Shown piece after piece: positions 3,731-47,590 of a DNA stretch of 64,000 nt; the first letter of the stretch is position 1, and the number at the start of each line of letters is the position of its first letter. The notes under the pieces were generated by a model. That model was not told the origin of the DNA. It was given only the letters and a program-made list of their open reading frames with translations, and searched no databases. The position numbers were made by a program, and so were the translations under genes. Source of the stretch: Verrucomicrobiota bacterium (lineage in GTDB: Bacteria > Chlamydiota > Chlamydiia > Chlamydiales > JAEYWL01); assembly GCA_023428915.1 (NCBI GenBank), contig JAEYWL010000111.1, positions 2,769-66,768 of the forward strand. The letters are read 5' to 3'.

Positions 3731-3734
3731 GGTT

Positions 3735-4099
3735 TGGGAGGAGAGGTAGTCGCTGCCGCTTGTAAAAGCGGGAGAGGAAAGTCTGGACTTCATAGAAGAG
3801 GATACCAGCGAAAGGCTGGGGGCCGTAAGGCTACGGAAAGTGTAACAGAAAGCAATCCGCTAGCAGGCATTGCCTGCTAGGTAGGCTGAAACGCTAGCTT
3901 ATGGAGCTAGCCGCATCTGGAGCAATCCAGAGCGCTGACAAACCCTATCCGAAGCAAGACCGAATAGAGCGTTATCCTGTGCTTCGCAGAGTTCTAAAGG
4001 TGTCGCTTAAGGTTCCTGGCGACAGGAGCCGTAGAGGAATGACTGCCATCTTTTAAGAGTTTCTTAAGAGCATACAGAATCCGGCTTACAATCCTCCCA
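3735..4099 (+). ncRNA. rnpB: RNase P RNA, bacterial type A (ends approximate)
   Basis: Contains the conserved gagaggaaagtctggact (GAGGAAAGUCnGGnC) motif, gtaacagaaagcaa, and the 3' motif acagaatccggcttac. The terminal P1 pairing is tgggagga (3735-) with tcctccca (-4099). The region is non-coding in all frames. Confidence 0.85.
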
Positions 4100-4140
4100 T
4101 TTTTTTCCAATGCTCGATTTTTAGAAGTATTGTTTATCCT

Positions 4141-15514: not shown

Positions 15515-15554
15515 AGAAAGATTCCGTACAAAGGTAGCAAGTCGGTTTTAATTT
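15510..15554. repeat. degenerate half-copy of repeat family A
   Basis: aaggtagcaagtcggttttaatt matches the right terminus of the family A elements (ggtagcaag[tc]cgggttttaatt). It sits directly at the GNAT stop codon. Confidence 0.45.
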
Positions 15555-15628
15555 AAGCTTTATTTATTTCTTTCTTCCGGTTATCATCTCTCCATAAATT
15601 TTCATTTTTATTACCTATTTCATTGTGT

Positions 15629-16294
15629 ATGGCGCAAGATCCTTTACAACAGTTATATGAAATTGCTGCTGATGTTAATCTAAAGATTAAGATTAATGAC
15701 AACTGCTCGACGATGTTGAGCGTGCGTTGGGAACCTGATCATACGCGGGTCTCACTGCATAGAATGTTTTTGCAGGCGCCTAAAAACGTAATGGAAGAGC
15801 TTGCCTGTTATATCAAGCAAAAGGGCAAGGTAGGTCCTGAGGTTAAAGCTTTTATAGAGTCTAACCTTTCTGAGCTAGACTACTCAAGCCAACTTAACCC
15901 TAAGAAACTGCAAGTAGCTGGAACCGTGTATAACTTGCGTGAGATTTATGACAATCTCAATAGCGAGTACTTTAATGAAGAGGTCGACCTATTTATTACC
16001 TGGTTTGGCAAGCCTGGGTTTAAACCTAAAACCAAGCTGACTTTTGGTTTGTATCAAGATCCGCTAAAGTTGATTAAAATCAATCGATTATTGGATAGTA
16101 TACTTATTCCTGATTATTTCATATCATTTGTGGTCTATCATGAAATGCTTCATAAAGTGTGCCGCAGTTTTGTAGATGAACGTGGAATAAACCACTCTCA
16201 TACACCTGAATTTAGAGAGCGGGAACGGGAGTTTAAGCATTACGATTTAAGCCAAGAGTGGATTGAAAATAATAAAATGAGACTATTTGCATAA
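15629..16294 (+). CDS. SprT-like / DUF45-type zinc metallopeptidase-fold protein
   Basis: The HExxH motif sits in FVVYHEMLHKVC, followed by HTPEFRERE. ATG 15629 is preferred over the ORF-track TTG at 15623. Confidence 0.55.
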   Translation: MAQDPLQQLYEIAADVNLKIKINDNCSTMLSVRWEPDHTRVSLHRMFLQAPKNVMEELACYIKQKGKVGPEVKAFIESNLSELDYSSQLNPKKLQVAGTVYNLREIYDNLNSEYFNEEVDLFITWFGKPGFKPKTKLTFGLYQDPLKLIKINRLLDSILIPDYFISFVVYHEMLHKVCRSFVDERGINHSHTPEFREREREFKHYDLSQEWIENNKMRLFA

Positions 16295-19272: not shown

Positions 19273-19276
19273 AGCT

Positions 19277-19363
19277 TTAAACCCGACTTGCTACCTTCTA
19301 ACCCATGATTGGCCACGGATTAGGGTGCAATCATGGGTTAGAAGGCAGCAAGTCGGGTTTTAA
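19277..19363. repeat. palindromic MITE-like repeat, family A (TTAAACCCGACTTGCTACC termini)
   Basis: ttaaacccgacttgctaccttctaacccatgatt...aatcatgggttagaaggcagcaagtcgggttttaa is a near-perfect hairpin with arms of about 35 bp. It fills the gap between the convergent stops at 19272 and 19368. Confidence 0.85.
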
Positions 19364-19367
19364 TTAA

Positions 19368-20345
19368 CTAGGCCTTGCTGTCAATCTTAAATTTAGCCTG
19401 ATATTTTTTGCAGGGCTTGGGTGTTTTTTCAGTAGGAAGAAATTTTGGCTGATAAACAGTTATTTTAGATCTTCCTCTTCCTTTTGCTGCAGGCGGATTT
19501 GTTCCAACTAGCGGCTTTACTGCTTGAGCAGGCGACTCAACCGTTGCGGGTTGAGGCAGTGCCATACGGCATAAAAACACTGGAATTAACGGAACAAATG
19601 CATAACCCGGCGGAGGAGCTGGCATTTGTAGTTGAGGCGTTGAGGTCGCTGTTTGAGACAACACATGAAGGGGCAGGGCAGGCATGCTGTTTTGATTGCT
19701 GATTGCCGGGGGCGGCGCCACATTTACAGATGCAGAGGGCGTTGTAGACTTTTCATGGTATTCAGAAGGCACATTGGCTGGCATAGATGCTATTGCTCTA
19801 AACTTAGAAGAAGCAAGTTGAGTTGTTAAGGATGCTGTTCGAGGTCTTCCCTTTTTCTTTTTTATTTCTGCAGTTGATTGAACGCTTGCTTTAGGTTTTT
19901 TCTCAATAAGTTTTTTTGGAGCGGGCCTAAGATTTGAAGCAGATGCTTTTACTGTTTTACTGATAGGCTGTTTACTTGCTGGAGTAATTGGCAGTGTTTT
20001 GACTATTGCAGTTTTCCTATGGCTTATTTTTTTTGGAGTAGAGGGCACTGCAGATGTTAAATTATGGATAGGCAAGTTTTTATTGATAAGAGGAGATAAG
20101 GGCCAGGCATTATTTGAAAAAGCTTTTTGCTCCACTTCAAAGCCAGGTATTGCGCGTTGCAGCGTTATGGAGGCTGTAGCAATCTGTTCGATTTTGCCAA
20201 CATTTCCTATGAGATCAGATTCGCTTAAGTTAGGGGTTGTTAAAAGATTAAGTGCTTCTTTATCTGTGAGCTCTGTCTCTTTTAATCCTAGATAAACAGA
20301 TTTATATAAATCTTCAATATTTAGTTTGCTATTAAAATTAACCAT
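19368..20345 (-). CDS. hypothetical Pro/Ser/Thr/Lys-rich disordered protein with AT-hook-like motifs
   Basis: 325 aa of low-complexity sequence. It contains KKKKGRPRTAS (GRP core) and AAKGRGRSK. There is an AT-rich upstream region at 20346-20470. Confidence 0.6.
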   Translation of the reverse strand: MVNFNSKLNIEDLYKSVYLGLKETELTDKEALNLLTTPNLSESDLIGNVGKIEQIATASITLQRAIPGFEVEQKAFSNNAWPLSPLINKNLPIHNLTSAVPSTPKKISHRKTAIVKTLPITPASKQPISKTVKASASNLRPAPKKLIEKKPKASVQSTAEIKKKKGRPRTASLTTQLASSKFRAIASMPANVPSEYHEKSTTPSASVNVAPPPAISNQNSMPALPLHVLSQTATSTPQLQMPAPPPGYAFVPLIPVFLCRMALPQPATVESPAQAVKPLVGTNPPAAKGRGRSKITVYQPKFLPTEKTPKPCKKYQAKFKIDSKA

Positions 20346-20541
20346 GTAAAAACCTTTATAATTTAAACAGCTATTTTATATTATTTGTAAATAATAGTAA
20401 ATTTAAATGCTTAATTAATTTATTGTTTGTATGTTTTTTTAGTTAATGATGAGTTGCGGCAAATAAAGGCAATGAGTTGAAAAATATTTGCATATTTTGC
20501 GATCAAAAATAAGCGCACCTCTTTTCAAGGTGCGCGAGCCG

Positions 20542-20709
20542 TTAAAACCCAAGTTGCGCCCCTAAATCACGCTTGAACAGGCCTGCACTTGCCAATTGAA
20601 ACGCTAAGCCCCTCGGCCAAGTCACGGCTTGGCTCTTCGGGACTTATCCTTTCACTTGTCAAGTTTGGCAATGTTCAAGCGTAATTTAGGGGCGCAACTT
20701 GGGTTTAAA
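20542..20709. repeat. palindromic repeat, family A variant (TTAAAACCCAAGTTGCGCCCCTAAAT termini)
   Basis: ttaaaacccaagttgcgcccctaaatcacgcttgaac...gttcaagcgtaatttaggggcgcaacttgggtttaaaa is an imperfect palindrome of about 168 bp. It lies between the stop of the 1138-aa ORF and the promoter region of the 325-aa ORF. Confidence 0.8.
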
Positions 20710-20757
20710 AATAAAGAGCCATGCCATTTTTTCACGGCTTCGAAATATTGTCGATGA

Positions 20758-23700
20758 TTATGAGATTACACAATCTCCAGCAGCTTGTTGGGCTTTATGG
20801 ATTCCTAATAATTTCTTAACTAATTTAGGGGATGTTGCCATCTCAAATACTTGTTTGCCCAGGTCTTGTTCTGCAGGTGCATCCAGCATCTCCAAGTCAC
20901 CGTTAGCTACAGCCTTTTGAAGGGGATTAAGGTCTGTTGATTTCTGCACAATACGGCAGTATATTTCAGCAGTTTTTTGCATTGTCTCTGGAAGTATGCT
21001 TTCAAGGTTGTCGCCATGGATTTTAGCAAGGGCGTCTTGCAGCTCTGCAATGGCACCTTGTACAGCCTCTTGTGCATATTCTTTATCCTTCAAATCTGTG
21101 AACTCTTTTTCTAGTTCTTCTGAATCCCTGGCAGCTTCAGAAGATGGCGGTAATCTGCCAAACAGGAAATCATGGCCGCCGACAGCGAATATGCTTTCTA
21201 AATTATCTCTTAAAGGCAGATCTGCACTTGCCAAGGCATGTAAAAGTCCATGCAAACAAAGGTGTTTAAATTTCGTATAAGTTTCTTTCTGCTCAGGTCT
21301 GGCAAGGGAATGTTTTTCAGCTGATTTTTCCAAGAACTCCAAGAGATAGCCGATGACCCATTCAGCGGGTTTGTTGTGTTCCTCTCTTAGCTGCATGACT
21401 TTTGGCAGCCTTTGCAAAAATAGAGCATTCCAAATATCCCGATATACCATTTTTTCTTTGTCAGATATATTGAAGGCATCCATGAGTTCATTAAGCGTTT
21501 CTTTGAGCTGTTCTTTTCTTTTTACGATTAGAGTCGTGTTATCTTCTGAAGATAATCTAGTTGCGGCAGAGCTTGCTTGATTTGTAAAAGAAGTAGGCAA
21601 ATCCCCTTTAAGAAATTCCTCCAGGGTTGATTTATATAGCTCCTTTGCTAAATCTTCTATGTGTGGTTTGGCATTGCGTAGTTTTAGTTGCGCTACGTCT
21701 AAGCAGCTTTGACTAAATTTATTGAAGTTTTGCAAGTTTAATTCACCAAAAAACAAATTTCTGTGGGTTGCATTATGGTACTCTTCAGCCATTAGTAAAC
21801 TTTCAGGGTCGTTATACAATTTCGCAACTGTTTGGATGAGCAAACCCATTAAATCCAAGCTAGCGGCAATTTGTTTAGGATCTGCAAGGCTATCAGGCAC
21901 TCTTGCCGCTGTGCTTTCTTGAATTAGATGAGGGATAATCTCGTGGCAGAGTATGGCAATGGCTTCTTTGCACTGTTCTTTACTTATAAGTGCGGAAGGT
22001 AAATTGGTTCGTGTTCTTACTGCAAACAGCATCTCGGCAATTTGGGTAAGCTCTTCTTCGCTAAGCCGGTAATTACTGTCTATAGCGACTTTCCCAATAT
22101 CTTCAAAAAGTAATTTTAGGCTTGGAAATAAAAGGGGAGTGTTGACTTCTTGCTGCAAGAGTTTGATGCTATTTTTTATAAATTTTACGTGTTTTGGATT
22201 TTCCGATGACAAATGAAGCAGAAAACTTTCTAACTCTTTAAAAATGTTGCCTAAAAACTCCGGAGAATCTTCAACTGCATTTCTTGCTTGATCTATTTGG
22301 GCGAACATTTGGGCAAGGGTATTGCTGGCGTAATAGACAAGAAAAGGTATGCTTAAAAATAGATTAGGATTAATAAGCATAGATTTGTGATCTTTAAAAT
22401 CATTATACGCGGCTTCTAAGCGTGCTTGATCGGCTGCAGGGATTTGATCCAGTTTAACGGGAGACACAAAAGGTTTGTGATTAGAAGCGATAAGAACCGG
22501 CAATATTTCCTGTTGTAAAAACTTGTCTAAACCGGGCGCCTTTACTTTAAAGGCAAGTCGGCAACATAAGGCCAAATTAGTTAAGGCTCTAGCAAAATTT
22601 ACCAAAGATGGCGCTGTTAGTTCTGGTATATCGTTTAGAGCGACTTGGAGTAAAGTTGGTTGGTTGGCTTGAATTCGGTTAAGTTCGTAGGCATTGAATT
22701 GATGAAGATCTTCTAAACATATATCAATAAAGGCAGCTATGCTGTCACTTGGAAGCATTGTGCCTTCGAGGATTAAGCCAGCAAATTGTTGGGATAAAGT
22801 ATGCAAAGTCCTTAATTTTTCAGGATTTGCTTGAAGCTGTTGCACTGCATGAGCCATGTGGCTTGTGAGTACCCAATGGGATAAATCGATACCTTTTTCT
22901 TCTAAGAAAGAAGAAATAGCCGTAGTTAACTCCTGAAAATCTTTTTCGTGAGTTACCCAGGCTTGGAGAAATATTGGTGAAGTCTGTGCGAAAATTTTTA
23001 AATTAGTTTGAGGTTCTGCGGGCCAAGCAATTACTCGTATCTCATTTCTTAGAGCCTCCACAAAAGGCTGCTCTCCAACTTTTCGTTCCAGTGCATCCAA
23101 CATAATTATAGCAAGCTTAGGAAGATGCGGCCAAATGGCAGCAGAAGTCTCTTGATCAATTAAATGGGAGATAAAGTTTAAAGAGTTAATGCAAGAATCA
23201 AAGCTAAATTGATCTGGATGATTTATAAGATTTATAATAGATTGTATCGAATAGTTTTGATTACTTGCTATGGCCGCTTGTTCATTCCTTTTTACTGTGA
23301 GCAATTTTTCGCAAAGTGGAGCGAGTTCTTCGGCTAGTTGTTGGATTGTAACTTCATCATTTAGAATTTCAGCAATAAACTTGAACTTATTTTTTTCTGG
23401 CTCTGTAGTGGTTTCGACTCCTTGCATATGCACACAAGCTTGCCCGCCAATTCGCAATAGCTTTTGTAAATTTTCAGGAGATATTTTTAGCTCTCTATTT
23501 GCTTGATAATCCAATAGCAATTGAAGCAAGGGTAATCCAATTTCTGCCGCACTCTTACAAATAGCATCATTGGAAAGAGCGTTTGCTGCAAGATTCAAGT
23601 ATTGCGTTATACTCGAAGAAAATTCTTCATTATTATTAGCAAAATATTGGCACACAGGCTGGGCAATGACTGCGAGTTTTTGCATAGTTTCCTGCGAAAT

Positions 23701-24174
23701 CTCAAGCGGCAGGCCCATTCGATAGCGGCAATAATTTTCTACAAGTGTTGGAGTAATGTCTTCTAATGCCTTTTTCCGTGCAGGATTTTCATTGATAACT
23801 GCGAAGAGATTCGCGACATGTGAGGGAAGTTTCTCCGGAAAATAATACACAGCTGCTTTTACCAGGAGTTTCAAACCCATATTTTTAGTGAATACACAAG
23901 CTCGTACACAAGTTCGAGCAGTATTACTCGTCAGCTCTGGTAAATTTGTCATTATGGCAGGCAACTCAGCGGCAAGTAATAGGCTTGAAGTGATATTTCC
24001 TTGAGTACTGCATAAGAATTGCAAGAGAGCAATGTTTTTAATTGCCGCAGGAAGCGGGCTGGTGTTAAAGAATGTGTGTATAGTAGAAACGCCTTGAACG
24101 ACTGCATTGGTTGTGCGGTTCATTTGTTGCCAAATTGCATTGCCTATTCCTTGGGATTGACCTGTCTGTTCCAT
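20758..24174 (-). CDS. large orphan protein, paralog 1 of a tandem triplet
   Basis: 1138-aa uninterrupted ORF. It is homologous along its length to the ORFs at 24410-27181 and 27560-29656. Examples are LVENYCRYRMGLPLE and LKLLFEDIGKVAIDSNYRLSEEELTQI. I recognise no known domain. Confidence 0.75.
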   Translation of the reverse strand: MEQTGQSQGIGNAIWQQMNRTTNAVVQGVSTIHTFFNTSPLPAAIKNIALLQFLCSTQGNITSSLLLAAELPAIMTNLPELTSNTARTCVRACVFTKNMGLKLLVKAAVYYFPEKLPSHVANLFAVINENPARKKALEDITPTLVENYCRYRMGLPLEISQETMQKLAVIAQPVCQYFANNNEEFSSSITQYLNLAANALSNDAICKSAAEIGLPLLQLLLDYQANRELKISPENLQKLLRIGGQACVHMQGVETTTEPEKNKFKFIAEILNDEVTIQQLAEELAPLCEKLLTVKRNEQAAIASNQNYSIQSIINLINHPDQFSFDSCINSLNFISHLIDQETSAAIWPHLPKLAIIMLDALERKVGEQPFVEALRNEIRVIAWPAEPQTNLKIFAQTSPIFLQAWVTHEKDFQELTTAISSFLEEKGIDLSHWVLTSHMAHAVQQLQANPEKLRTLHTLSQQFAGLILEGTMLPSDSIAAFIDICLEDLHQFNAYELNRIQANQPTLLQVALNDIPELTAPSLVNFARALTNLALCCRLAFKVKAPGLDKFLQQEILPVLIASNHKPFVSPVKLDQIPAADQARLEAAYNDFKDHKSMLINPNLFLSIPFLVYYASNTLAQMFAQIDQARNAVEDSPEFLGNIFKELESFLLHLSSENPKHVKFIKNSIKLLQQEVNTPLLFPSLKLLFEDIGKVAIDSNYRLSEEELTQIAEMLFAVRTRTNLPSALISKEQCKEAIAILCHEIIPHLIQESTAARVPDSLADPKQIAASLDLMGLLIQTVAKLYNDPESLLMAEEYHNATHRNLFFGELNLQNFNKFSQSCLDVAQLKLRNAKPHIEDLAKELYKSTLEEFLKGDLPTSFTNQASSAATRLSSEDNTTLIVKRKEQLKETLNELMDAFNISDKEKMVYRDIWNALFLQRLPKVMQLREEHNKPAEWVIGYLLEFLEKSAEKHSLARPEQKETYTKFKHLCLHGLLHALASADLPLRDNLESIFAVGGHDFLFGRLPPSSEAARDSEELEKEFTDLKDKEYAQEAVQGAIAELQDALAKIHGDNLESILPETMQKTAEIYCRIVQKSTDLNPLQKAVANGDLEMLDAPAEQDLGKQVFEMATSPKLVKKLLGIHKAQQAAGDCVIS

Positions 24175-24355
24175 AGTACCTCTATTATTACAAATATGAA
24201 ATAATATTTATTATGCGTATTGATTTGATAGTAATTTTTAAGTATTAAGATATTAAATATAGTTTGTTTAGATTAGATAAAGGAGTTGAATTTTTAGAAA
24301 GCTATTTTATTTAAAATTAGCTTTAAGCGTATTTGGGGTTTGTTTTAAAAAGAAG

Positions 24356-24385
24356 TTTACTAGCTGCATATATGCAGCTAGTAAA
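24356..24385 (-). terminator. perfect 30-nt palindrome downstream of paralog 2 (putative terminator)
   Basis: tttactagctgcatatatgcagctagtaaa lies 25 bp beyond the stop of the ORF at 24410-27181. It is followed on the minus strand by the AT-rich upstream region of paralog 1. Confidence 0.55.
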
Positions 24386-24409
24386 TAAGGGCAGCTAGCC
24401 AAGCGTGTT

Positions 24410-27181
24410 TCACGCCTGCAATTGGTGCTGCCTCTGCAACCGTTGCAGCAGGCTGGTTTGATTTTCTTCATTTGCAAGATACTCATCTACCTTTTGAGCA
24501 AATGTTGAAGGGTTTATTAGAGCCAAATCTTTATCGAGCACTGCAGCTTGCAGCGGGTTTAAAGGAGACTGGATTATGATGCGTTTATAAGTTTCGATTA
24601 TCTTTTGTTTTGTTTCAGGGGAAGGGTTGCTGAATTCATCTTCTAAATTAGCTTCGGGGGACTTGCTATTGACAAATTCCCTTAAGAGTTCTTTTAGAAT
24701 GCTATCCAGTATTTTCTCCATTCTTGGTTTTGTTTGGGCAATCCTTATCTTGGCAATTTTTACACAATTACCTATAAACTCTTCTAAGCTCTCACTATTT
24801 AGCTCATCAAAGCTTAGGTTGGCTTGTGTCTCGCTATAACATTCCTCAAATGCAATATAGCCCTTTACATCCCCGCGTAATTTTGAAAATACCTGCCCGG
24901 CAAATCCTATTAGATGAAGGGCAGCTCTTATTTGTTCCCGATCGGTTATTTGCAAGGCGGCTTTTCCTTTAACAGCTTCATTAATATGATGAGGAATGAC
25001 TTGATGGCAGAAAACAGCCACATCTTGCTTGAACTGCTCTTCGGTAATCAATAAGTCTGGTAACCCCAGCCTTCTTCTAGTACCTAAAAAGGCATTAACA
25101 ATTTGATTGAGTTCTTCATCACTAAAGCGGAATGCATTATCAAGCGCAATTTTACCAATTCCCTCTAAAAGAACTTTTAGGCCGGGGAGCAAAAGCGGTT
25201 CTGAGACTTCTAGCTGCAAGAGCTTAAGGCTGTTTTTAACTAAATTGACAAATCGGGGGGCATGTTTTTTATCAGCTGGTAGCAAAGCAGTTTCAATATT
25301 CTTGAAGATGTTGTTTAAGGACGCCATGGCAGCGCCTTCCATATCATTTCTTGCCTGGGCGAGCATATCTATAATTTGCGTAAAAGCGGAGCTCCCATAA
25401 TGCACAAAAAAAGCTGTGCCGGCAAAAATATTTGGGAAAGAAATTCCGGTGTAATCAATAAGCCTGTACCACTCATCAAAGTATTCATCAAAAAAGTTAT
25501 CTCCTTTTTTATTCCATATCTCAGTAAATGATAGTTTGGAAATGGCGGCTAATTCACTTAGTGAATATTTTGAGTCAAACGGCTGATAATTAGCTGCAAG
25601 GAAAAAGGGGGCAATTTGTTGTTCTAGGTATGCTTCCCATTCAGGACTGCTTTCACTAAAAGCTTGTTGAAAGCCAAAGGCACTTTTAGCTAACCAATTA
25701 TTGCTATCTGCTCCAAGATTTGTCACAGCGCCTGCCTGTGCGGCTTCAGCTTCCTGCATAAAAAAGTCATGCATCTCACTAAAGATAGCACTTAGCAAAG
25801 CGGGAATACTTCCGACTGGAGGGAGTGCGCCATTTTGCCTGAATGCTGTAAAATGCTGGAATGAGGTAAGAAGCTTCTCTGCTCTCTGTGGATCTTGGCG
25901 CAGTTTTTTTACCTCTTCTTTCCAAGCTCGCATAATGACATCTTGGGAGAGATTTACTTCCGCTTCATCTAAGTAATTTTCAAGAGCCTCGCAAAATTGA
26001 AAATAATTTTCTTTGCTATTGACCATGACTTGTTGATAAGCAGGGGCATAACGAGCAAACAGATCCAGCCAAGTTTGGAATAAAAAGAGATTTTGAGGTT
26101 CTTGCGGCCAGGAGTTGTTCTTAAAATCATCTCTAAGAGCTTGTACGTATGCCAGAGAGCCCAGCATACGCTCAAGTATGTCAAGGTTTATGTCAAAAAT
26201 TCTCGGTATGTGCGGCCATAGCGCCTTAGAAAGTTTCTCATAGGTTAAAAGTGTGGCTAATGAGCAAGGAAGTCCCTGTCCAAAAATCTTACTTTCAAGA
26301 GATGCGGCTTGAACGCCCTCTCTGATTATCGGAAGGGCACATTCAGTTAGGGCGGCAAGTTCTATGGTTAGCTGTTGCATAGTGCCTTCATTTTCAAGAA
26401 CCTTAGCGCATAATTTAAGCCAATTTTTAGTTCCGGGCTTAATTGTTTCAATATCCTGAGCATGCTGGCAAGCAATTATTCCTGCTTGCAGTATATGCTG
26501 CATAATTACGGGAGAAATTTTCAACGGTTTGTCAGTTTGAAAATCGCAAACAAGCTGGAGCAGCGGCGCGGCTATCTTGCTCAATTCCTCCCTGAGGCTG
26601 TCGCTGGAGAGTAGGTCGGCTATGAGTTGATATTTCTCTTTATCCTCTGGTTTTTTGCATTTTGCAGCAATATGCCGGGCATATGATTGTAAAATCTCCA
26701 AAAATTTGCTTGCTGTTTCCGGCGGCATATCAATGGGCAAACCTAAACGGTAGCGGCCATAATTTTCCACCAGCTTTGGAGAAATTTCAGCGAATAGCTT
26801 GCTTAATGCAGGATTCTGCGCAATAAAATCATGAAGATCTGTCACATAGTGATGGAATCGATTTGGGAAAAAATATAATACAGATTTAAAAGTCAGCTTA
26901 AGAGCCATATTTTTAGTATATACACAGGTCTGAACAGCGCCGGTTGCGAGCTTCTCCACCGGGAGCATAATCGTTTGAATAAAGCTCGAAGCTGCGGTCC
27001 CTTGCGCCGGGCGCAAAGACTGGGCCGCATTTTTAATTGTGCCTAATAAAGGGATAGCGGGAATATATTGCTGCAGGTTAACTACACTTGTACCTAGGCG
27101 TAATGCACCCTGCTGCGCTCCGTGCGCCGCTTGGCTTAAATGCTGCCAAAAAGTTGTTCCTACTCCATGTGAACGTTCCAT
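24410..27181 (-). CDS. large orphan protein, paralog 2 of a tandem triplet
   Basis: 923-aa ORF. Shared blocks with paralog 1 include TCVYTKNMALKL, LVENYGRYRLGLPID, PLLQLVCDFQTDKPLKISP, LWPHIPRI and LKVLLEGIGKIALDNAFRFSDEELNQI. Confidence 0.75.
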   Translation of the reverse strand: MERSHGVGTTFWQHLSQAAHGAQQGALRLGTSVVNLQQYIPAIPLLGTIKNAAQSLRPAQGTAASSFIQTIMLPVEKLATGAVQTCVYTKNMALKLTFKSVLYFFPNRFHHYVTDLHDFIAQNPALSKLFAEISPKLVENYGRYRLGLPIDMPPETASKFLEILQSYARHIAAKCKKPEDKEKYQLIADLLSSDSLREELSKIAAPLLQLVCDFQTDKPLKISPVIMQHILQAGIIACQHAQDIETIKPGTKNWLKLCAKVLENEGTMQQLTIELAALTECALPIIREGVQAASLESKIFGQGLPCSLATLLTYEKLSKALWPHIPRIFDINLDILERMLGSLAYVQALRDDFKNNSWPQEPQNLFLFQTWLDLFARYAPAYQQVMVNSKENYFQFCEALENYLDEAEVNLSQDVIMRAWKEEVKKLRQDPQRAEKLLTSFQHFTAFRQNGALPPVGSIPALLSAIFSEMHDFFMQEAEAAQAGAVTNLGADSNNWLAKSAFGFQQAFSESSPEWEAYLEQQIAPFFLAANYQPFDSKYSLSELAAISKLSFTEIWNKKGDNFFDEYFDEWYRLIDYTGISFPNIFAGTAFFVHYGSSAFTQIIDMLAQARNDMEGAAMASLNNIFKNIETALLPADKKHAPRFVNLVKNSLKLLQLEVSEPLLLPGLKVLLEGIGKIALDNAFRFSDEELNQIVNAFLGTRRRLGLPDLLITEEQFKQDVAVFCHQVIPHHINEAVKGKAALQITDREQIRAALHLIGFAGQVFSKLRGDVKGYIAFEECYSETQANLSFDELNSESLEEFIGNCVKIAKIRIAQTKPRMEKILDSILKELLREFVNSKSPEANLEDEFSNPSPETKQKIIETYKRIIIQSPLNPLQAAVLDKDLALINPSTFAQKVDEYLANEENQTSLLQRLQRQHQLQA

Positions 27182-27215
27182 TCTATACTCCTATTTATAT
27201 TAATATTATGAATTC

Positions 27216-27262
27216 TTAAAGCCCAGCTTGCCGCTTACATGCAGGTAACAAGCCGGATTTAA
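27216..27262. repeat. degenerate mini-hairpin related to repeat family A
   Basis: ttaaagcccagcttgccgcttacatgcaggtaacaagccggatttaa resembles family A termini joined directly. It lies about 35 bp upstream of the paralog 2 start. Confidence 0.4.
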
Positions 27263-27440
27263 TCCACGAAGCGGATTGTAAAGAGCGATTATTTAGATTA
27301 TGCAAAGATGACCGAAGACGGATTGCTGCCAAAATCCCAGTTTATTTTGTCAGCCTTTGGTCTCGATTTGTTTATATGATTTTGTGCCGGGCCTTGCGGC
27401 CCGACCCATACAGACCTTAACCTTAAGGTTTTCGCGGAGT

Positions 27441-27540
27441 TTAAACCCGGCTTGCTACCTTATAATAAGTCATATTCGAAAGTTTTTTCTTTCTAAGAGC
27501 TCGAATCTGACTCTTAGAAGGTAGCAAGCCGGGTTTTAAT
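27441..27540. repeat. palindromic MITE-like repeat, family A (about 100-bp form)
   Basis: ttaaacccggcttgctaccttataataagtcatattcgaaagttttttctttctaagagctcgaatctgactcttagaaggtagcaagccgggttttaat. The same unit occurs at 47181-47360 with an insertion, and at 57250-57344 inverted and degenerate. Confidence 0.85.
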
Positions 27541-27559
27541 TACAGGCAGCTGCGATATT

Positions 27560-29656
27560 TTACAATGCTTCAGCGGCGGATAGCTTGTTTTTAAATTCTT
27601 TGAAAGTAGTGCTTAAGAAAACAAGAAACTGTTGGTGTTTTGGATCTGTAATAGCAGTTTCTTGGTTTCTTAGAACTTTAATTAATTCCCCTAAGGGAAA
27701 GTTGTTGCAGAAAATGTTGACAAACTCGTGATACTGCTCCTCTGTATAGCTTTCAGCTGTAATCTCTAATTTTTTTCTAACTTGTAAAAAAGTGTCTGTG
27801 AATTGCTTAATCTGCATTTCAGTAAAACGGTGTTTAGAATTTAATGCCCTTATCGCTATGCCTTCAAAAAGTAGCTTCAGGCTTGGGAGAATATCGGGGG
27901 TGTGCGTAAATTCTTTAAGAAATTTGCAGCTATTTTTGACTAGCGTATCTGAAGATTTTTCAGATCCTGCTAAACAGGCTTCAAGGAAATCGATGCTTTT
28001 ATCAAGCAGATGCACCTCTTCTTCTACTTGATTTTGCTTGTTTTCAAGAAGAGCAATGGCATCATTGATAGAAGGTTCTGCATAATCCTGTTCTTCTTCT
28101 TTGGAGTTTTGCGAAGATACACTCTTTTGGATGACGGTGCTTAAAAATGTGCAAACCGTGTAAACGGTCATAAGTTCTATTTGTGTTACAGTCATAGGAA
28201 TTATTTCCGCCTGTTCTGACACAAACTCTCTTTGTCTTTCTACATCTGCTTTGTAAGTGCTTTCCCATACTCGAGGAATATGTTTTAACTTAAATTTAAA
28301 ATCAAACCTATAGGTAGACTTATAGGAATTTATTAAATATGTGAACAGGATATTAAAAAAGAGATTGTATTTTTTGGGTATACTTTCCGAAGCTTCTTGC
28401 ATGGCCTGTTTCAATACGATTATAGTGTCACTTGTTGCAGCGTTATCGCGTAAAATATCCAAAGGAAGCTTTTGCAAAACAAACTTTTCAAGAAGTGATA
28501 AAGTAGCTTTTTGGAGAACAGCAAATTCAACGTCTTTTTCCTCAATCCAGTTCGCTTCAATGCTTCCTAAAAGAGCGGCAGACTGCGCTGCTGATTCGGG
28601 GTATTTTTGATAGAGGATCAACTCTACTAAAAAAGCATAAAGAACGTCAGGCAGCTTGGTAATACCTTGCTCATTTAAATAGTTAAACAAGGCATCGGCA
28701 AATGCTGTGAAGGCTTCAGAATCTTTTTGAATGGCTTTGGCAATGATCAAAGAAAAGTGGTTTGGCCATAATAAAGGATCGGTTGGCTCTTTGCATTCTC
28801 TGGCGCTTTCATTTACTTTATCGATGAAGGTTAGAGCGGGGAAGCGCTCTTTAGCCCAATTAAATACCAGGGGCATTAATTCAGGGAGATATTTGGAAAG
28901 AAGTTTGGCGCTTTGCTGCGCGGCTTGGATCTGTCCTATTGTGGGATGGGGTATTTCAAAAGAAAAGCCATTTTCCCTTTTCTGGGCTGCCACATATTCT
29001 TTATAGAGTACAATCAGTTCTCCTAAAAGGGGGCAAATGGCGGGAGTTAATTGCTCCAGGAGTTTTTCTTCAGAATGAATAATTGCAATAAGCTGCCACA
29101 TCCCGCGCTGGGCTGCACTAAGCCCCTGACTTTCTAATTGACGCTGCGCCACTTTATAGAGCAATTGCAGGAATCGTTTAGCAAATTCAGGTTGGACTTC
29201 TAAAGGCATTCCTACTTTGCTGCGGCAATAATAGCTAATGAAAGGTGCATCGAGTTCGCGCAAGAGGTTGAGCTGTTCCTCTTCAGTAAAGGATGAAAAA
29301 AACTGCTGCGCTTGCTCTTCAGATAGATAGTCTGGCAACAGTGTCCGGGCAAACTTTAAGGTAAAGTCATTAGTGCGGTTGCAGGTTTGCGCAACGATGT
29401 GCTTACAGCTGCCGACAATTACAGGCACGGCGCGCAAAACAATAGGAGCAACAGTTCTTTCACATTTTTGGTAGACAGTTTGCACAAATGGAATTTGGGC
29501 TACCCGAATGACTAAAGGGTTTTGTGTGATGGTTCTAAAAGTGATATCTACAATAGTTTTACCTATGCCAAGCGTTTTTGCAGTAGTGTTGTGCCAGAAG
29601 CTGCCTGCCTGTTGCCAACGCGAGACACTTTTTTGTGAATCGTTGCCTGTTTCCAT
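27560..29656 (-). CDS. large orphan protein, paralog 3 of a tandem triplet (the most divergent)
   Basis: The ORF-track version is 726 aa from 29740. I prefer the start at M29 (METGNDSQKS, complement of 29654-29656) by analogy with MEQTGQSQ and MERSHGVG. Shared blocks are ISYYCRSKVGMPLEV and LPSLKLLFEGIAIRALNSKHRFTEMQIKQF. Confidence 0.7.
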   Translation of the reverse strand: METGNDSQKSVSRWQQAGSFWHNTTAKTLGIGKTIVDITFRTITQNPLVIRVAQIPFVQTVYQKCERTVAPIVLRAVPVIVGSCKHIVAQTCNRTNDFTLKFARTLLPDYLSEEQAQQFFSSFTEEEQLNLLRELDAPFISYYCRSKVGMPLEVQPEFAKRFLQLLYKVAQRQLESQGLSAAQRGMWQLIAIIHSEEKLLEQLTPAICPLLGELIVLYKEYVAAQKRENGFSFEIPHPTIGQIQAAQQSAKLLSKYLPELMPLVFNWAKERFPALTFIDKVNESARECKEPTDPLLWPNHFSLIIAKAIQKDSEAFTAFADALFNYLNEQGITKLPDVLYAFLVELILYQKYPESAAQSAALLGSIEANWIEEKDVEFAVLQKATLSLLEKFVLQKLPLDILRDNAATSDTIIVLKQAMQEASESIPKKYNLFFNILFTYLINSYKSTYRFDFKFKLKHIPRVWESTYKADVERQREFVSEQAEIIPMTVTQIELMTVYTVCTFLSTVIQKSVSSQNSKEEEQDYAEPSINDAIALLENKQNQVEEEVHLLDKSIDFLEACLAGSEKSSDTLVKNSCKFLKEFTHTPDILPSLKLLFEGIAIRALNSKHRFTEMQIKQFTDTFLQVRKKLEITAESYTEEQYHEFVNIFCNNFPLGELIKVLRNQETAITDPKHQQFLVFLSTTFKEFKNKLSAAEAL

Positions 29657-29730
29657 GCATTTTCTCCAATTATTATTATGATATTTCCTAAAGATTAGAT
29701 TGCTAAATGCGATAGTACTGAATGGGATGA

Positions 29731-30846
29731 TTACAGACAATGTTTGTAGAATTGTTCGTACTGAGGCACGACGACATCTGCGCAGAACTTGCTTTGAGCT
29801 ATATTTTGGGCAGCTGCGCTCATGGAAGCATAACGGGCCGGGGAAGCGAGGAGTTCGATGGCTTTATCCGCCATGGCAGCAACATCGCCTACCGGGGAGA
29901 GATAGCCGGAAACGCCATCTTCTACAACTTCCGGCAAACCGCCAGTGTGCGTAGCGATGACGGGTACGCCGTAAGCCATGGCTTCCAGGGCCGATAAGCC
30001 AAAGCTTTCCTGTTCGCTGGGAAGCAGAAAAAGATCGCCGCTAGCGATATAGCTGTCGATTTCCCGTATTTTTCCTAAGAAAACTACCTCTTTTTCTAAG
30101 CCCAGGTCGTGTACAAGAGTAATGATTTCTTGCAAGCCTTTGCCATGCCCAAGCAGTAAGAGTTTGCTTGGAATAGCTTTATGCACTTTTGCAAAAACTT
30201 TGATGACATCCGGAACTCGTTTGACAAAACGAAAATTCGAGGAATGCACCAGCAATTTTTCTCCGGGATTAGCAAAACGGCAGTGAAATGGCTTTTTACC
30301 AGCTAAATCTTTTTTGGGTTTAAAGAAATTGGGGATTACCGTAATGGCTTTTTGCAAATGAAAGTGGTTGAGGGTTTCTTGTTTTAAGCTTTGCGAAACT
30401 GCGGTGAGGGCATCGCTATGTTCCATGCTAAATTTAACAATATCACTATAGCCAGGATCTTTACCCACAAGGGTAATATCGGTGCCATGCAGAGTGGTTA
30501 CAACTTGAGGGCAGTGCGCGGCCAGCAGCTGCTTAGCAAGATAAGCACTGGCTGCATGGGGGATGGCATAATGTACGTGGAGGATATCAAGGGAATGCTC
30601 TTTGGCAACTTGGGCAATTTTAACGGCCAAAGTCAGGGCATAGTCCGGATATTCAAAGAGATCATACTGATTAATGCCCACTTCGTGAAAGAAGATATTG
30701 CTTCTTTCGATCTGAAGCCTAAAAGGCACTTCATAGGCAATAAAATGCACTTCATACCCGCGTTCGGCAAGCTCATGGCCTAATTCTGTCGCCACAACGC
30801 CGCTTCCGCCAAGAGTGGGGTAGCAGACAATGCCTATTCTTATCAT
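29731..30846 (-). CDS. bshA: GT4 glycosyltransferase closely resembling BshA (N-acetyl-alpha-D-glucosaminyl L-malate synthase)
   Basis: 371 aa. MIRIGIVCYPTLGGSGVVATELGHELAERGYEVHFIAYEVPFRL, HEVGINQYDLFEYPDYALTLAVKIA, HYAIPHAASAYLAKQ, TTLHGTDIT and ESFGLSALEAMAYGVPVIATHTGGLPEVV run parallel to Bacillus BshA as I recall it. Confidence 0.75.
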   Translation of the reverse strand: MIRIGIVCYPTLGGSGVVATELGHELAERGYEVHFIAYEVPFRLQIERSNIFFHEVGINQYDLFEYPDYALTLAVKIAQVAKEHSLDILHVHYAIPHAASAYLAKQLLAAHCPQVVTTLHGTDITLVGKDPGYSDIVKFSMEHSDALTAVSQSLKQETLNHFHLQKAITVIPNFFKPKKDLAGKKPFHCRFANPGEKLLVHSSNFRFVKRVPDVIKVFAKVHKAIPSKLLLLGHGKGLQEIITLVHDLGLEKEVVFLGKIREIDSYIASGDLFLLPSEQESFGLSALEAMAYGVPVIATHTGGLPEVVEDGVSGYLSPVGDVAAMADKAIELLASPARYASMSAAAQNIAQSKFCADVVVPQYEQFYKHCL

Positions 30847-36825: not shown

Positions 36826-38085
36826 ATGACTGTAGTTTGCAATCCAGAGAATAGATACGGCAATTATTTTGCCGAAACCCACACAATTGCCAAGGCCAGT
36901 GCCGATCCAGAAGAACTTTTTGACCGTTCTAAAGGCACTGTATTCTTTCTGCCTAGCGACACTGACAGCAAAGTTCATACCGTGCTGAATGCCTGGATCG
37001 TTGAAAATATCTATGAGCCAGGCGATGTGCTGCTTTTTGGAGGAAGGGAGCGAAGCATCCCTATCAATGAAGAACTGAAAGAGAGTACAGTCTGGCGCTA
37101 TAAGACGCTATTGCAGTATCTTTCGCATCCCTTTGAGACGATAGATTTTTGGGATTCCGATAGCGGCATAATGATGAGTTGTGATAATCGCCTTATCCCG
37201 GCTACTGCTTTCTTAATTACCCGCAAGCTAATGGAGTCGCGCTGCGAGGCTGAGGATTGGGCCAAAGATATGCGTTTGCTGGTCGATACCTTATCTTTAA
37301 TAGTTAAATCCCCAAAGCTTTCTAAAAACCCCATAATGGCCGCTGCACAAGTTTGGAAGGGACTGTTTAATGTCCGCACGAGGCAAATAGCCAAGCTTGA
37401 AAAAGAATTAAAACAGCTGCCCTTCGAAGCCTATCAGAAAAAAGAACGTGCCGGAGTAAGCCACGCCATTATTCAAATATTGTTCCCCCTTTACCTTAAA
37501 GAAATGAGGGCCACACTGACCGGGGATGGTTTTATGGTCCGGCAAAGCCAATGCGGCGCAGCAATTAAAACCAATCTAACTGCCAATAACCGTGTATTTG
37601 TAAGCCTCAGCAAAGCCAATGTTCTTGAAGGCTCGCTGGCAGCCCTTGGCCTTCATGCAGGAAATGATTATTACAAAGCTGTCAGACATCTTTTTGCTGG
37701 ATTGCGCGGCATAAACTATGTTGTGTTTGAACCAAAAGATGATCCTGCGCTTGCTGACGAAATTGCCGATCAGCTGGAAGCCCGGCGGCACGGGTTATTC
37801 TTAACACAAGCGCTTCGCATAGGCCATTTCATTGCCTATATTTTTAAAACTATTGGCCGCGCAGTTATATATCCTGTTGTGTGCAGTGCAGCCTGGATGC
37901 AGCGCAAATGGCAATACTATACATTTAAAAGCCTGCAGCTGAGTCAAAACTATCTTGAGCGTGAATCCCTCAAAAAAGACTTTTTTGATATCATGACCGG
38001 CCTAGAGTTCTACCTAAGAAGAGCCTCAGAGCCAGACTGTAATCTTCTGGCTTCTCTCCGGCAGACCACTAGACTTCTTGTGTAA
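36826..38085 (+). CDS. hypothetical protein (no recognisable domain; hydrophobic segment near the C-terminus)
   Basis: 419-aa uninterrupted ORF 12 nt after the asnS stop. The segment LFLTQALRIGHFIAYIFKTIGRAVIYPVVCSAAWM looks membrane-associated. Confidence 0.6.
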   Translation: MTVVCNPENRYGNYFAETHTIAKASADPEELFDRSKGTVFFLPSDTDSKVHTVLNAWIVENIYEPGDVLLFGGRERSIPINEELKESTVWRYKTLLQYLSHPFETIDFWDSDSGIMMSCDNRLIPATAFLITRKLMESRCEAEDWAKDMRLLVDTLSLIVKSPKLSKNPIMAAAQVWKGLFNVRTRQIAKLEKELKQLPFEAYQKKERAGVSHAIIQILFPLYLKEMRATLTGDGFMVRQSQCGAAIKTNLTANNRVFVSLSKANVLEGSLAALGLHAGNDYYKAVRHLFAGLRGINYVVFEPKDDPALADEIADQLEARRHGLFLTQALRIGHFIAYIFKTIGRAVIYPVVCSAAWMQRKWQYYTFKSLQLSQNYLERESLKKDFFDIMTGLEFYLRRASEPDCNLLASLRQTTRLLV

Positions 38086-47180: not shown

Positions 47181-47360
47181 TTAAAACCCGACTTGCTACC
47201 TTATAATAAGTTATATTCGAAAGTTTTTTCTCTCTAAGAGCTCGCAAAAATCAGTGGGCCATATTATTAATATGACCCACTGATTTTCAAGGCTTCGTGC
47301 GAGCTCTTAGAGGAAAAGGACTCGAATCTGACTCTTAGAAGGTAGCAAGTTGGGTTTAAA
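47181..47360. repeat. family A repeat carrying a nested palindromic insertion (composite, about 180 bp)
   Basis: The termini and flanks are identical or near-identical to 27441-27540. After ctaagagctcg comes an extra segment of about 80 bp that is itself a hairpin (aaaatcagtgggccatattattaatatgacccactgatttt). It lies 18 bp from tRNA-Arg. Confidence 0.85.
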
Positions 47361-47377
47361 TGAAAACGGAATGAAAA

Positions 47378-47450
47378 CGGACTGAGTAGGATTCGAACCT
47401 ACGACCACCCGCTTAGAAGGCGGGTGCTCTATCCACTGAGCTATCAGTCC
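47378..47450 (-). tRNA. tRNA-Arg (anticodon TCT)
   Basis: The reverse complement is ggactgatagctcagtggatagagcacccgccttctaagcgggtggtcgtaggttcgaatcctactcagtccg. It folds as a cloverleaf with acceptor ggactga/tcagtcc, anticodon stem cccgc/gcggg with loop cttctaa, and a T-arm containing ggttcgaatcc. Confidence 0.9.
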
Positions 47451-47590
47451 ATTAGGAAAAGGGCTATATTAGCTATCCTGTTGCAAATTTACAAGCGAAA
47501 AATGGACTTTCCTGAAATTCGTAAGAAAATCGAATTCTGTTGAATTCATGGCCATAGCAGGGTATGCTATTCTCCTAATAGTGAGTGGAA

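Follow-up and report, generated by a model that had tools for sequence, protein, structure and literature searches.

Three tandem orphan paralogs downstream of dnaA and bshA in an uncultured Parachlamydiaceae form a fast-evolving candidate family of host-interaction proteins

Environmental chlamydiae carry many hypothetical genes, few of which can be prioritised as candidates for host interaction, and we asked whether three such genes that stand in tandem next to dnaA belong among those few. The window analysed here is a stretch of 64,000 nucleotides (positions 2,769 to 66,768 of contig JAEYWL010000111.1, assembly GCA_023428915.1), in which three large open reading frames (ORFs), called A, B and C below, follow dnaA and bshA. 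They had previously been described from the sequence as a tandem triplet of related orphans in a chlamydial genome, with a suggestion that they encode type III secreted host-interaction proteins (the original prediction). The present analysis establishes that they are paralogous orphans under coding constraint, that they evolve fast in an array whose content turns over, and that their products lack a transmembrane helix or signal peptide. On these grounds, the trio could be a new lineage-restricted family of secreted proteins. When DnaA was used as a query, 535 relatives were retrieved; the 80 best matches were all Chlamydiota, mostly Parachlamydiaceae, at 74% identity or less. The chlamydial origin was thus upheld and narrowed to the Parachlamydiaceae, and by this comparison the window is from an uncultured member of a genus not among the GTDB species representatives searched.

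The arrangement directly downstream of dnaA-bshA, with all three genes on the minus strand, was confirmed by the ORFs together with TIGR00362 and TIGR03999 matches of the two upstream genes, which are co-directional with C, B and A. On its 3' side, the array is followed first by a 325-aa ORF (orf325) and then by housekeeping genes. Products of 698, 923 and 1138 aa were identical in separate gene calls on the ENA, NCBI and Logan assemblies. From a TTG codon the gene C ORF would span 27560-29740 (726 aa), and the ATG start at 29656 has a GGAG 9 nt upstream. The sizes had been described as stepping down along the array, but in the order of transcription (C, B, A) they grow.

Pairwise BLASTP showed that the three are true paralogs, as had been proposed. 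A and B align with 33% identity over 884 aa (E = 1e-139), and C matches A at E = 4e-14 and B at E = 5e-15 through colinear high-scoring segment pairs (HSPs) in the N-terminal ~200 aa, the middle and a C-terminal block. This block is the best-conserved segment in all three and includes the motifs KNS.K.L...P..LP.LK.L.E.I and R....EEQ. The conserved motifs quoted in the original prediction were found, except that A reads ACVFTKNM, not TCVFTKNM. Relative to B, A carries an insertion of ~190 aa at roughly residues 865-1050, and both end in a motif, PET.QK..E.Y.RI.Q...LNPLQ.AV, whose PET.QK...LNPLQ is missing from C. At the other end, the first 25 residues consist to 48-60% of S, T, N, Q and G with 0-1 Leu and 1-2 acidic residues, and M1, E2, a W and a Q are invariant in the pattern ME...S......WQQ.

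A recurring R.R.GLP...E motif prompted us to consider an internal duplication of the N- and C-terminal domains, which was rejected (hhalign probability 0.5%, no self-BLAST HSPs). Profile self-comparison gave a weak match at an offset of ~30-40 residues (E ~2e-5, probability ~75%). A and B are identical across assemblies, whereas two conservative substitutions in C separate two assemblies of the organism. At C residues 278-279 (~28820-28825), the window and the protein P0004 read FIDKV and P0003 reads FMEKV, a strain-level polymorphism within the sample set.

No family could be assigned to the trio, in agreement with the original prediction. Scans against Pfam and NCBIfam gave nothing at threshold, with only sub-threshold noise in Pfam at E<=0.1, and the PADLOC models of anti-phage defence and the PHROGs models of phage proteins returned 0 families each. 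Sequence and profile searches of the PDB were likewise without a match, as were the Foldseek comparisons described below. An exhaustive phmmer search with B against 1.84 billion representative proteins returned B, A and C alone; since this library merges relatives of more than 50% identity, the three matches are three clusters, not three proteins. A word-indexed search, which is weak for long queries, gave only the self-match with A and with a three-sequence profile, missing the paralogs, and C was the sole query to recover an ortholog from a sister genome. The family profile found no relative in the GTDB genomes, and none was found in JGI metagenomes or, by tblastn, in plasmids. The 20-kb dnaA neighbourhoods of 80 Parachlamydiales contained no homolog by tblastn or by hmmsearch and phmmer with --max, and the gene order downstream of dnaA was not conserved among them. 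Neither a match to a housekeeping family nor conservation outside the lineage, both of which had been named as evidence against novelty, was found.

The sister genome is the metagenome-assembled genome GCA_048222815.1, in which a 6.7-kb contig (L083) carries dnaA, bshA, an ortholog of C (C', protein P0007, 713 aa) and a further member, A', which runs off the contig end after 435 codons. Between the two genomes DnaA is 99% and BshA 95% identical, while C' is 73-75% identical to C, and A' is 52-55% identical to A and 37% to B. No B-like gene stands at the matching position of L083, whose contig ends within A'.

We used divergence at fourfold-degenerate sites within conserved codons as an internal clock. 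This divergence was 0.30 for the dnaA pair, 0.34 for the bshA pair and 0.31 for C/C', so that C and C' are true orthologs that diverged when the flanking genes did, and the array has an internal rate control in dnaA and bshA, which adjoin C at the same silent divergence. The corresponding nonsynonymous divergences (dN) were 0.006, 0.027 and 0.133, and the ratios to synonymous divergence (dN/dS) were 0.01, 0.055 and 0.22, the last over 697 codons. Protein C therefore changes at ~22 times the rate of DnaA and ~5 times that of BshA at equal fourfold-site divergence. Constraint within C is strongest over the N-terminal ~240 codons (dN 0.03-0.07), and residues ~270-560 change fastest (dN 0.16-0.31). 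The start codon, Shine-Dalgarno sequence and reading frame are conserved between C and C', and intact ORFs occur in both genomes and in all three assemblies.

The A/A' pair gave a fourfold divergence of 0.57 +/- 0.05, a dN of 0.33 and a dN/dS of 0.22. Given that its silent-site divergence is ~2.7 times that of the flanking genes, A' is an out-paralog of A that is older than the species split. The values for B/A' (0.67) and A/B (0.71) were higher still. Among the paralogs A, B and C, the proportion of nonsynonymous differences (pN) was 0.43-0.54 and that of synonymous differences (pS) was 0.76-0.77, the latter saturated, so that the pairwise dN/dS among the paralogs is uninformative. A pN below the saturated pS, together with the C/C' ratio, indicates purifying selection on the protein sequence. 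The proposal of an old serial duplication was thus borne out in its age (pS 0.77), but the stepwise picture was too simple. By these divergences there are at least four old lineages (A, A', B and C) that were differentially retained between the sister genomes, and the pattern across the two arrays is one of birth-and-death evolution with interspecies clustering, not of concerted evolution.

The physical character of the proteins points to large soluble molecules. None of the 19-residue Kyte-Doolittle windows of A, B and C reaches 1.6 (maxima 1.34-1.54), and hence the three contain neither a transmembrane helix nor the hydrophobic region of a signal peptide, as the original prediction had held. 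All are acidic, with net charges of -11 to -34. AlphaFold2 modelled full-length B with helices only and poorly, at a mean predicted local distance difference test score (pLDDT) of 47.6, where just residues ~112-290 reach 60-85. The C-terminal block alone gave a moderate model (pLDDT 68, predicted template modelling score 0.68), a bundle of about ten helices. Foldseek found no significant fold match for either model: the C-terminal block had none with E<1 in the PDB and BFVD, and the best matches of full-length B (E 0.028, template modelling score ~0.10), which were to solenoids such as Ctr9, nucleoporins, importins and CAND1, are non-significant and meaningless because the model is poor. A, B and C are predicted to be large soluble all-alpha proteins.

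Soluble helical proteins with no Sec signal, restricted to one lineage of an obligate intracellular phylum, encoded in an array of varying content, evolving fast and low in GC content at third codon positions (GC3 0.33-0.38, compared with 0.43-0.51 in nearby housekeeping genes) together make up the profile of chlamydial host-interaction proteins. A type III secretion (T3S) system is common to chlamydiae. The likeliest reading, to which we give about even weight for and against, is that the trio forms a new family, restricted to this lineage, of host-interaction proteins that are secreted, probably by the type III route. The effector idea is strengthened, at the level of sequence evolution, by the rate acceleration and array turnover, which are the expected signature of host-interaction genes. 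Under this reading, A, B and C would be functional and rapidly diversifying genes, each its own transcription unit with a 5' region and a 3' hairpin. Old duplications, differential retention of paralogs and fast amino-acid change under overall purifying selection would have shaped the array. The products would be exported without a Sec signal, probably via the type III system, with the conserved N-terminal third serving export, chaperone or anchoring functions, and contact with host targets would fall to the rapidly changing middle and to the helical bundle conserved at the C-terminus.

A stronger version would make the trio a new effector family with a new all-alpha fold, exported by the T3S system through its unusually conserved N-terminal module and engaged with a protist host in an arms race. 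Signs of such a race would be the rapid change of the central region and the differing paralog content of the sister species, and for the bundle of about ten helices no counterpart was found among solved or viral predicted structures. We hold this version to be possible but less likely than not.

Several points weigh against secretion to a host. Secretion, its route and host targeting are features that we infer from the profile. A, B and C yielded no eukaryote-like domain or motif, and no T3S chaperone-like gene adjoins the array: the neighbours are bshA and orf325, and the spacers of 235, 378 and 412 nt are too short and hold no ORF of chaperone size. An adjacent dedicated chaperone gene is frequent but not obligatory for T3S effectors, of which lineage restriction and accelerated evolution are typical and not defining. 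The absence of a hydrophobic segment and the polar, Leu-poor N-termini are compatible with export outside the Sec pathway and not specific to a T3S signal, and T3S signals are rarely conserved in sequence, so that the conserved N-terminus may serve another purpose. Furthermore, environmental chlamydiae abound in orphan genes that evolve fast, many of which need not encode effectors; the C/C' dN/dS of 0.22 represents relaxed or mixed constraint and not demonstrated positive selection; confidence in the structure models is low to moderate; and the family is carried by two related genomes among all those searched, so that the evolutionary argument is one comparison.

Some of these points suit the main rival explanation, in which the trio are lineage-specific proteins that stay inside the bacterium, for example as helical scaffolds or as regulators of the developmental cycle or envelope, and diverge fast because constraint is weak and the intracellular population, being small, is prone to drift. 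The missing chaperone neighbour and the dN/dS of 0.22 without demonstrated positive selection are in line with this, as are the position of the array among housekeeping genes beside dnaA and the weak self-match at an offset of ~30-40 residues, which is also seen in generic helical-repeat scaffolds. However, drift alone does not account for the rate of C relative to dnaA and bshA at equal silent divergence, and the differing paralog content of the sister arrays is left unexplained. Internal scaffolds are also normally conserved across a family or order, and none was found near dnaA in the 80 relatives. We consider this explanation possible but rather doubtful.

Horizontal acquisition from the host, a giant virus or another symbiont, followed by local duplication, would be compatible with an effector role. 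The trio and orf325 lie in a block of lower GC and GC3 from ~19368 to 29656 (GC3 0.29-0.38, compared with 0.43-0.51 elsewhere), and the unconserved gene order downstream of dnaA in relatives would also fit an insertion. Low GC3 is, however, also typical of native genes that are young or weakly expressed. No donor-like homolog was found in the 1.84 billion proteins, viral predicted structures, plasmids or metagenomes, no integrase genes or tRNA-flanked island borders surround the array, and the saturated silent sites make the duplications ancient. Such an origin is accordingly improbable.

Inc proteins and surface proteins such as Pmp-type autotransporters or adhesins come to mind because chlamydial Inc and Pmp genes also form tandem paralog arrays. 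Inc proteins have a bilobed hydrophobic domain of ~40-60 residues, and the trio has neither this domain nor any hydrophobic stretch (maximum Kyte-Doolittle value 1.54). Pmp-type autotransporters have a signal peptide, a beta-helical passenger and a C-terminal beta-barrel, and the trio has no signal peptide, only helices by AlphaFold2 and DSSP, not a beta-helix or barrel, and no autotransporter match in Pfam. Hydropathy and secondary structure thus effectively refute an Inc or Pmp identity, which we hold to be very improbable. Decaying or non-functional duplicates, read as long ORFs by chance, might be suspected from the orphan status, low GC3 and size differences between copies, but ORFs of 698-1138 codons in DNA of ~40% GC cannot persist by chance, and such pseudogene status, scarcely credible, is contradicted by the paralog pN far below the saturated pS, the ortholog dN/dS and the conserved start, Shine-Dalgarno sequence and frame.

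Table 1. Positions in the window of the array, its conserved segments and spacer elements, and other features
Feature	Position	Strand	Description
Gene A	20758-24174	-	1138 aa; largest family member; GC3 0.33
Gene B	24410-27181	-	923 aa; paralog of A, 33% identity over 884 aa
Gene C	27560-29656	-	698 aa from ATG 29656; most divergent paralog
bshA	29731-30846	-	TIGR03999, 500 bits (cut-off 274); conserved anchor, rate control
dnaA	30850-32187	-	TIGR00362, 468 bits; conserved anchor, rate control
C-terminal block of B	24773-25426	-	residues 586-803
C-terminal block, equivalent in A	21706-22350	-	corresponds to the block of B
C-terminal block, equivalent in C	27563-28126	-	corresponds to the block of B
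REP/MITE-like palindrome just 3' of C	27440-27539	.	long hairpin, -51.5 kcal/mol, z=-8.0 (folded 27430-27560)
Terminator-like hairpin 3' of B	24356-24385	-	13-bp stem and U-tract, z=-4.2
Terminator-like hairpin 3' of A	20513-20535	-	9-bp GC-rich stem and U-tract
Upstream block CTTTATCTAATCTAAACAA	24264-24282	-	~110 nt 5' of A ATG
Upstream block CTTTGCATAATCTAAATAA	27289-27307	-	5' of gene B
Inverted repeat, gene A-orf325 spacer	20542-20709		71-nt arms, 82% complementary, 26-nt loop
Copies of REP/MITE-like element	15533-15552; 19276-19363; 27244-27263; 27440-27539; 47181-47360; 57322-57341		
orf325	19368-20345	-	325 aa; GC3 0.29
602-aa ORF	48921-50729	+	no Pfam match at E<=1e-5
485-aa ORF	57342-58799	-	no Pfam match at E<=1e-5; GC3 0.28
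419-aa ORF	36826-38085	+	no Pfam match at E<=1e-5
223-aa ORF	15623-16294	+	no Pfam match at E<=1e-5
RNase P RNA class A	3734-4104	+	247 bits; housekeeping RNA
tRNA-Arg(TCT)	47377-47451	-	housekeeping RNA

The positions of these features are collected in Table 1. The spacers of the array bear on how the genes are transcribed and what was duplicated. The original prediction had placed palindromic repeat elements in the spacers, which holds for the spacer between C and B; the one between B and A contains a different hairpin, and that after A contains a hairpin together with an inverted repeat of 71-nt arms. The C-B spacer holds, besides the palindrome that probably ends the gene C transcript, a half-site of a dispersed palindromic element at 27244. 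A 19-nt block, CTTT..(C/A)(T/A)AATCTAAA(C/T)AA, lies ~105-115 nt before the starts of A, B and A' (~5333-5351 in L083). Its recurrence upstream of these genes indicates that the duplication unit took in the 5' region, and the block is possibly a shared promoter or operator duplicated with the genes. With their own 3' hairpins and the shared upstream block, the three genes look like separate transcription units.

The dispersed element resembles repetitive extragenic palindromes and miniature inverted-repeat transposable elements (REP/MITE-like). Its core, TTTAAACCCGRCTTGCTRCC, had 9 matches in the window, compared with 0.03 expected by chance, all of them intergenic and most just 3' of genes or beside tRNA-Arg. 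Copies that lie in pairs fold into long hairpins. L083 lacks the element, whose insertion sites are therefore polymorphic. The outer ends (TTTAAACCCAAGTTGCGCCCC) of the inverted repeat between gene A and orf325 resemble the core, so that this repeat is possibly a larger representative of the REP/MITE-like family.

The product of orf325 has no family match, is rich in P, S, T and K, looks disordered and carries two AT-hook-like motifs, KKKKGRPRT and AKGRGRSK. To judge from these motifs it might bind DNA or act as a nucleomodulin-type effector; as a fourth member of the trio family it was rejected, being unrelated to A, B and C. Among the four other ORFs in Table 1 that lack a Pfam match, none was matched by the family profile, and the 485-aa ORF shares the very low GC3 of the trio and orf325. 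BshA is here a full-length equivalog (bacillithiol biosynthesis glycosyltransferase) in a member of the Parachlamydiaceae. Its gene is co-directional with dnaA in the window and in L083, and is opposite (convergent) to dnaA in the six relatives that keep it nearby (L022, L024, L042, L051, L063 and L075; 59-63% identity).

We finally compared the trio with known systems. HEAT/ARM-like scaffolds share with it the all-alpha prediction, the large size, the weak offset self-similarity and the solenoid proteins among the non-significant top Foldseek matches, but no HEAT, ARM or TPR profile matches the trio. The DUF582 group of the Chlamydiaceae (CT619-CT621/CT711-CT712) comprises large, mostly alpha-helical, phylum-restricted soluble T3S substrates that are encoded in tandem, have no transmembrane helix and combine a conserved C-terminal domain with variable remainders among paralogs. 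The trio is likewise tandem, large and mostly alpha-helical with a conserved C-terminal domain, but shows no sequence relationship to this group by Pfam hmmscan, which is presumed to hold DUF582, and occurs in a single genus-level lineage.

Among documented systems, the PEX/NEX families of Protochlamydia and Neochlamydia are the closest analogue. These are tandem birth-and-death families with eukaryote-like F-box, BTB-box or leucine-rich repeat (LRR) domains and tens to >100 copies, in which the members tested in Shigella carried functional T3S signals (Domman et al. 2014, PMC4209131), a precedent for the effector reading. Like the trio, they occur in the Parachlamydiaceae in tandem arrays that follow birth-and-death evolution with interspecies clustering, differ in copy content between close relatives, are under overall purifying selection and lack a Sec signal. 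In contrast to PEX/NEX, the trio has no F-box, BTB-box or LRR domain at a Pfam E-value of 0.1 or less and is seen in only three copies plus the sister A'. The general concept is thus unchanged, given that birth-and-death effector arrays were already documented in the Parachlamydiaceae. In sum, orphan families are common in environmental chlamydiae, but the trio stands out among them by its clean control for accelerated evolution, and it represents a well-justified candidate effector family without a known domain.

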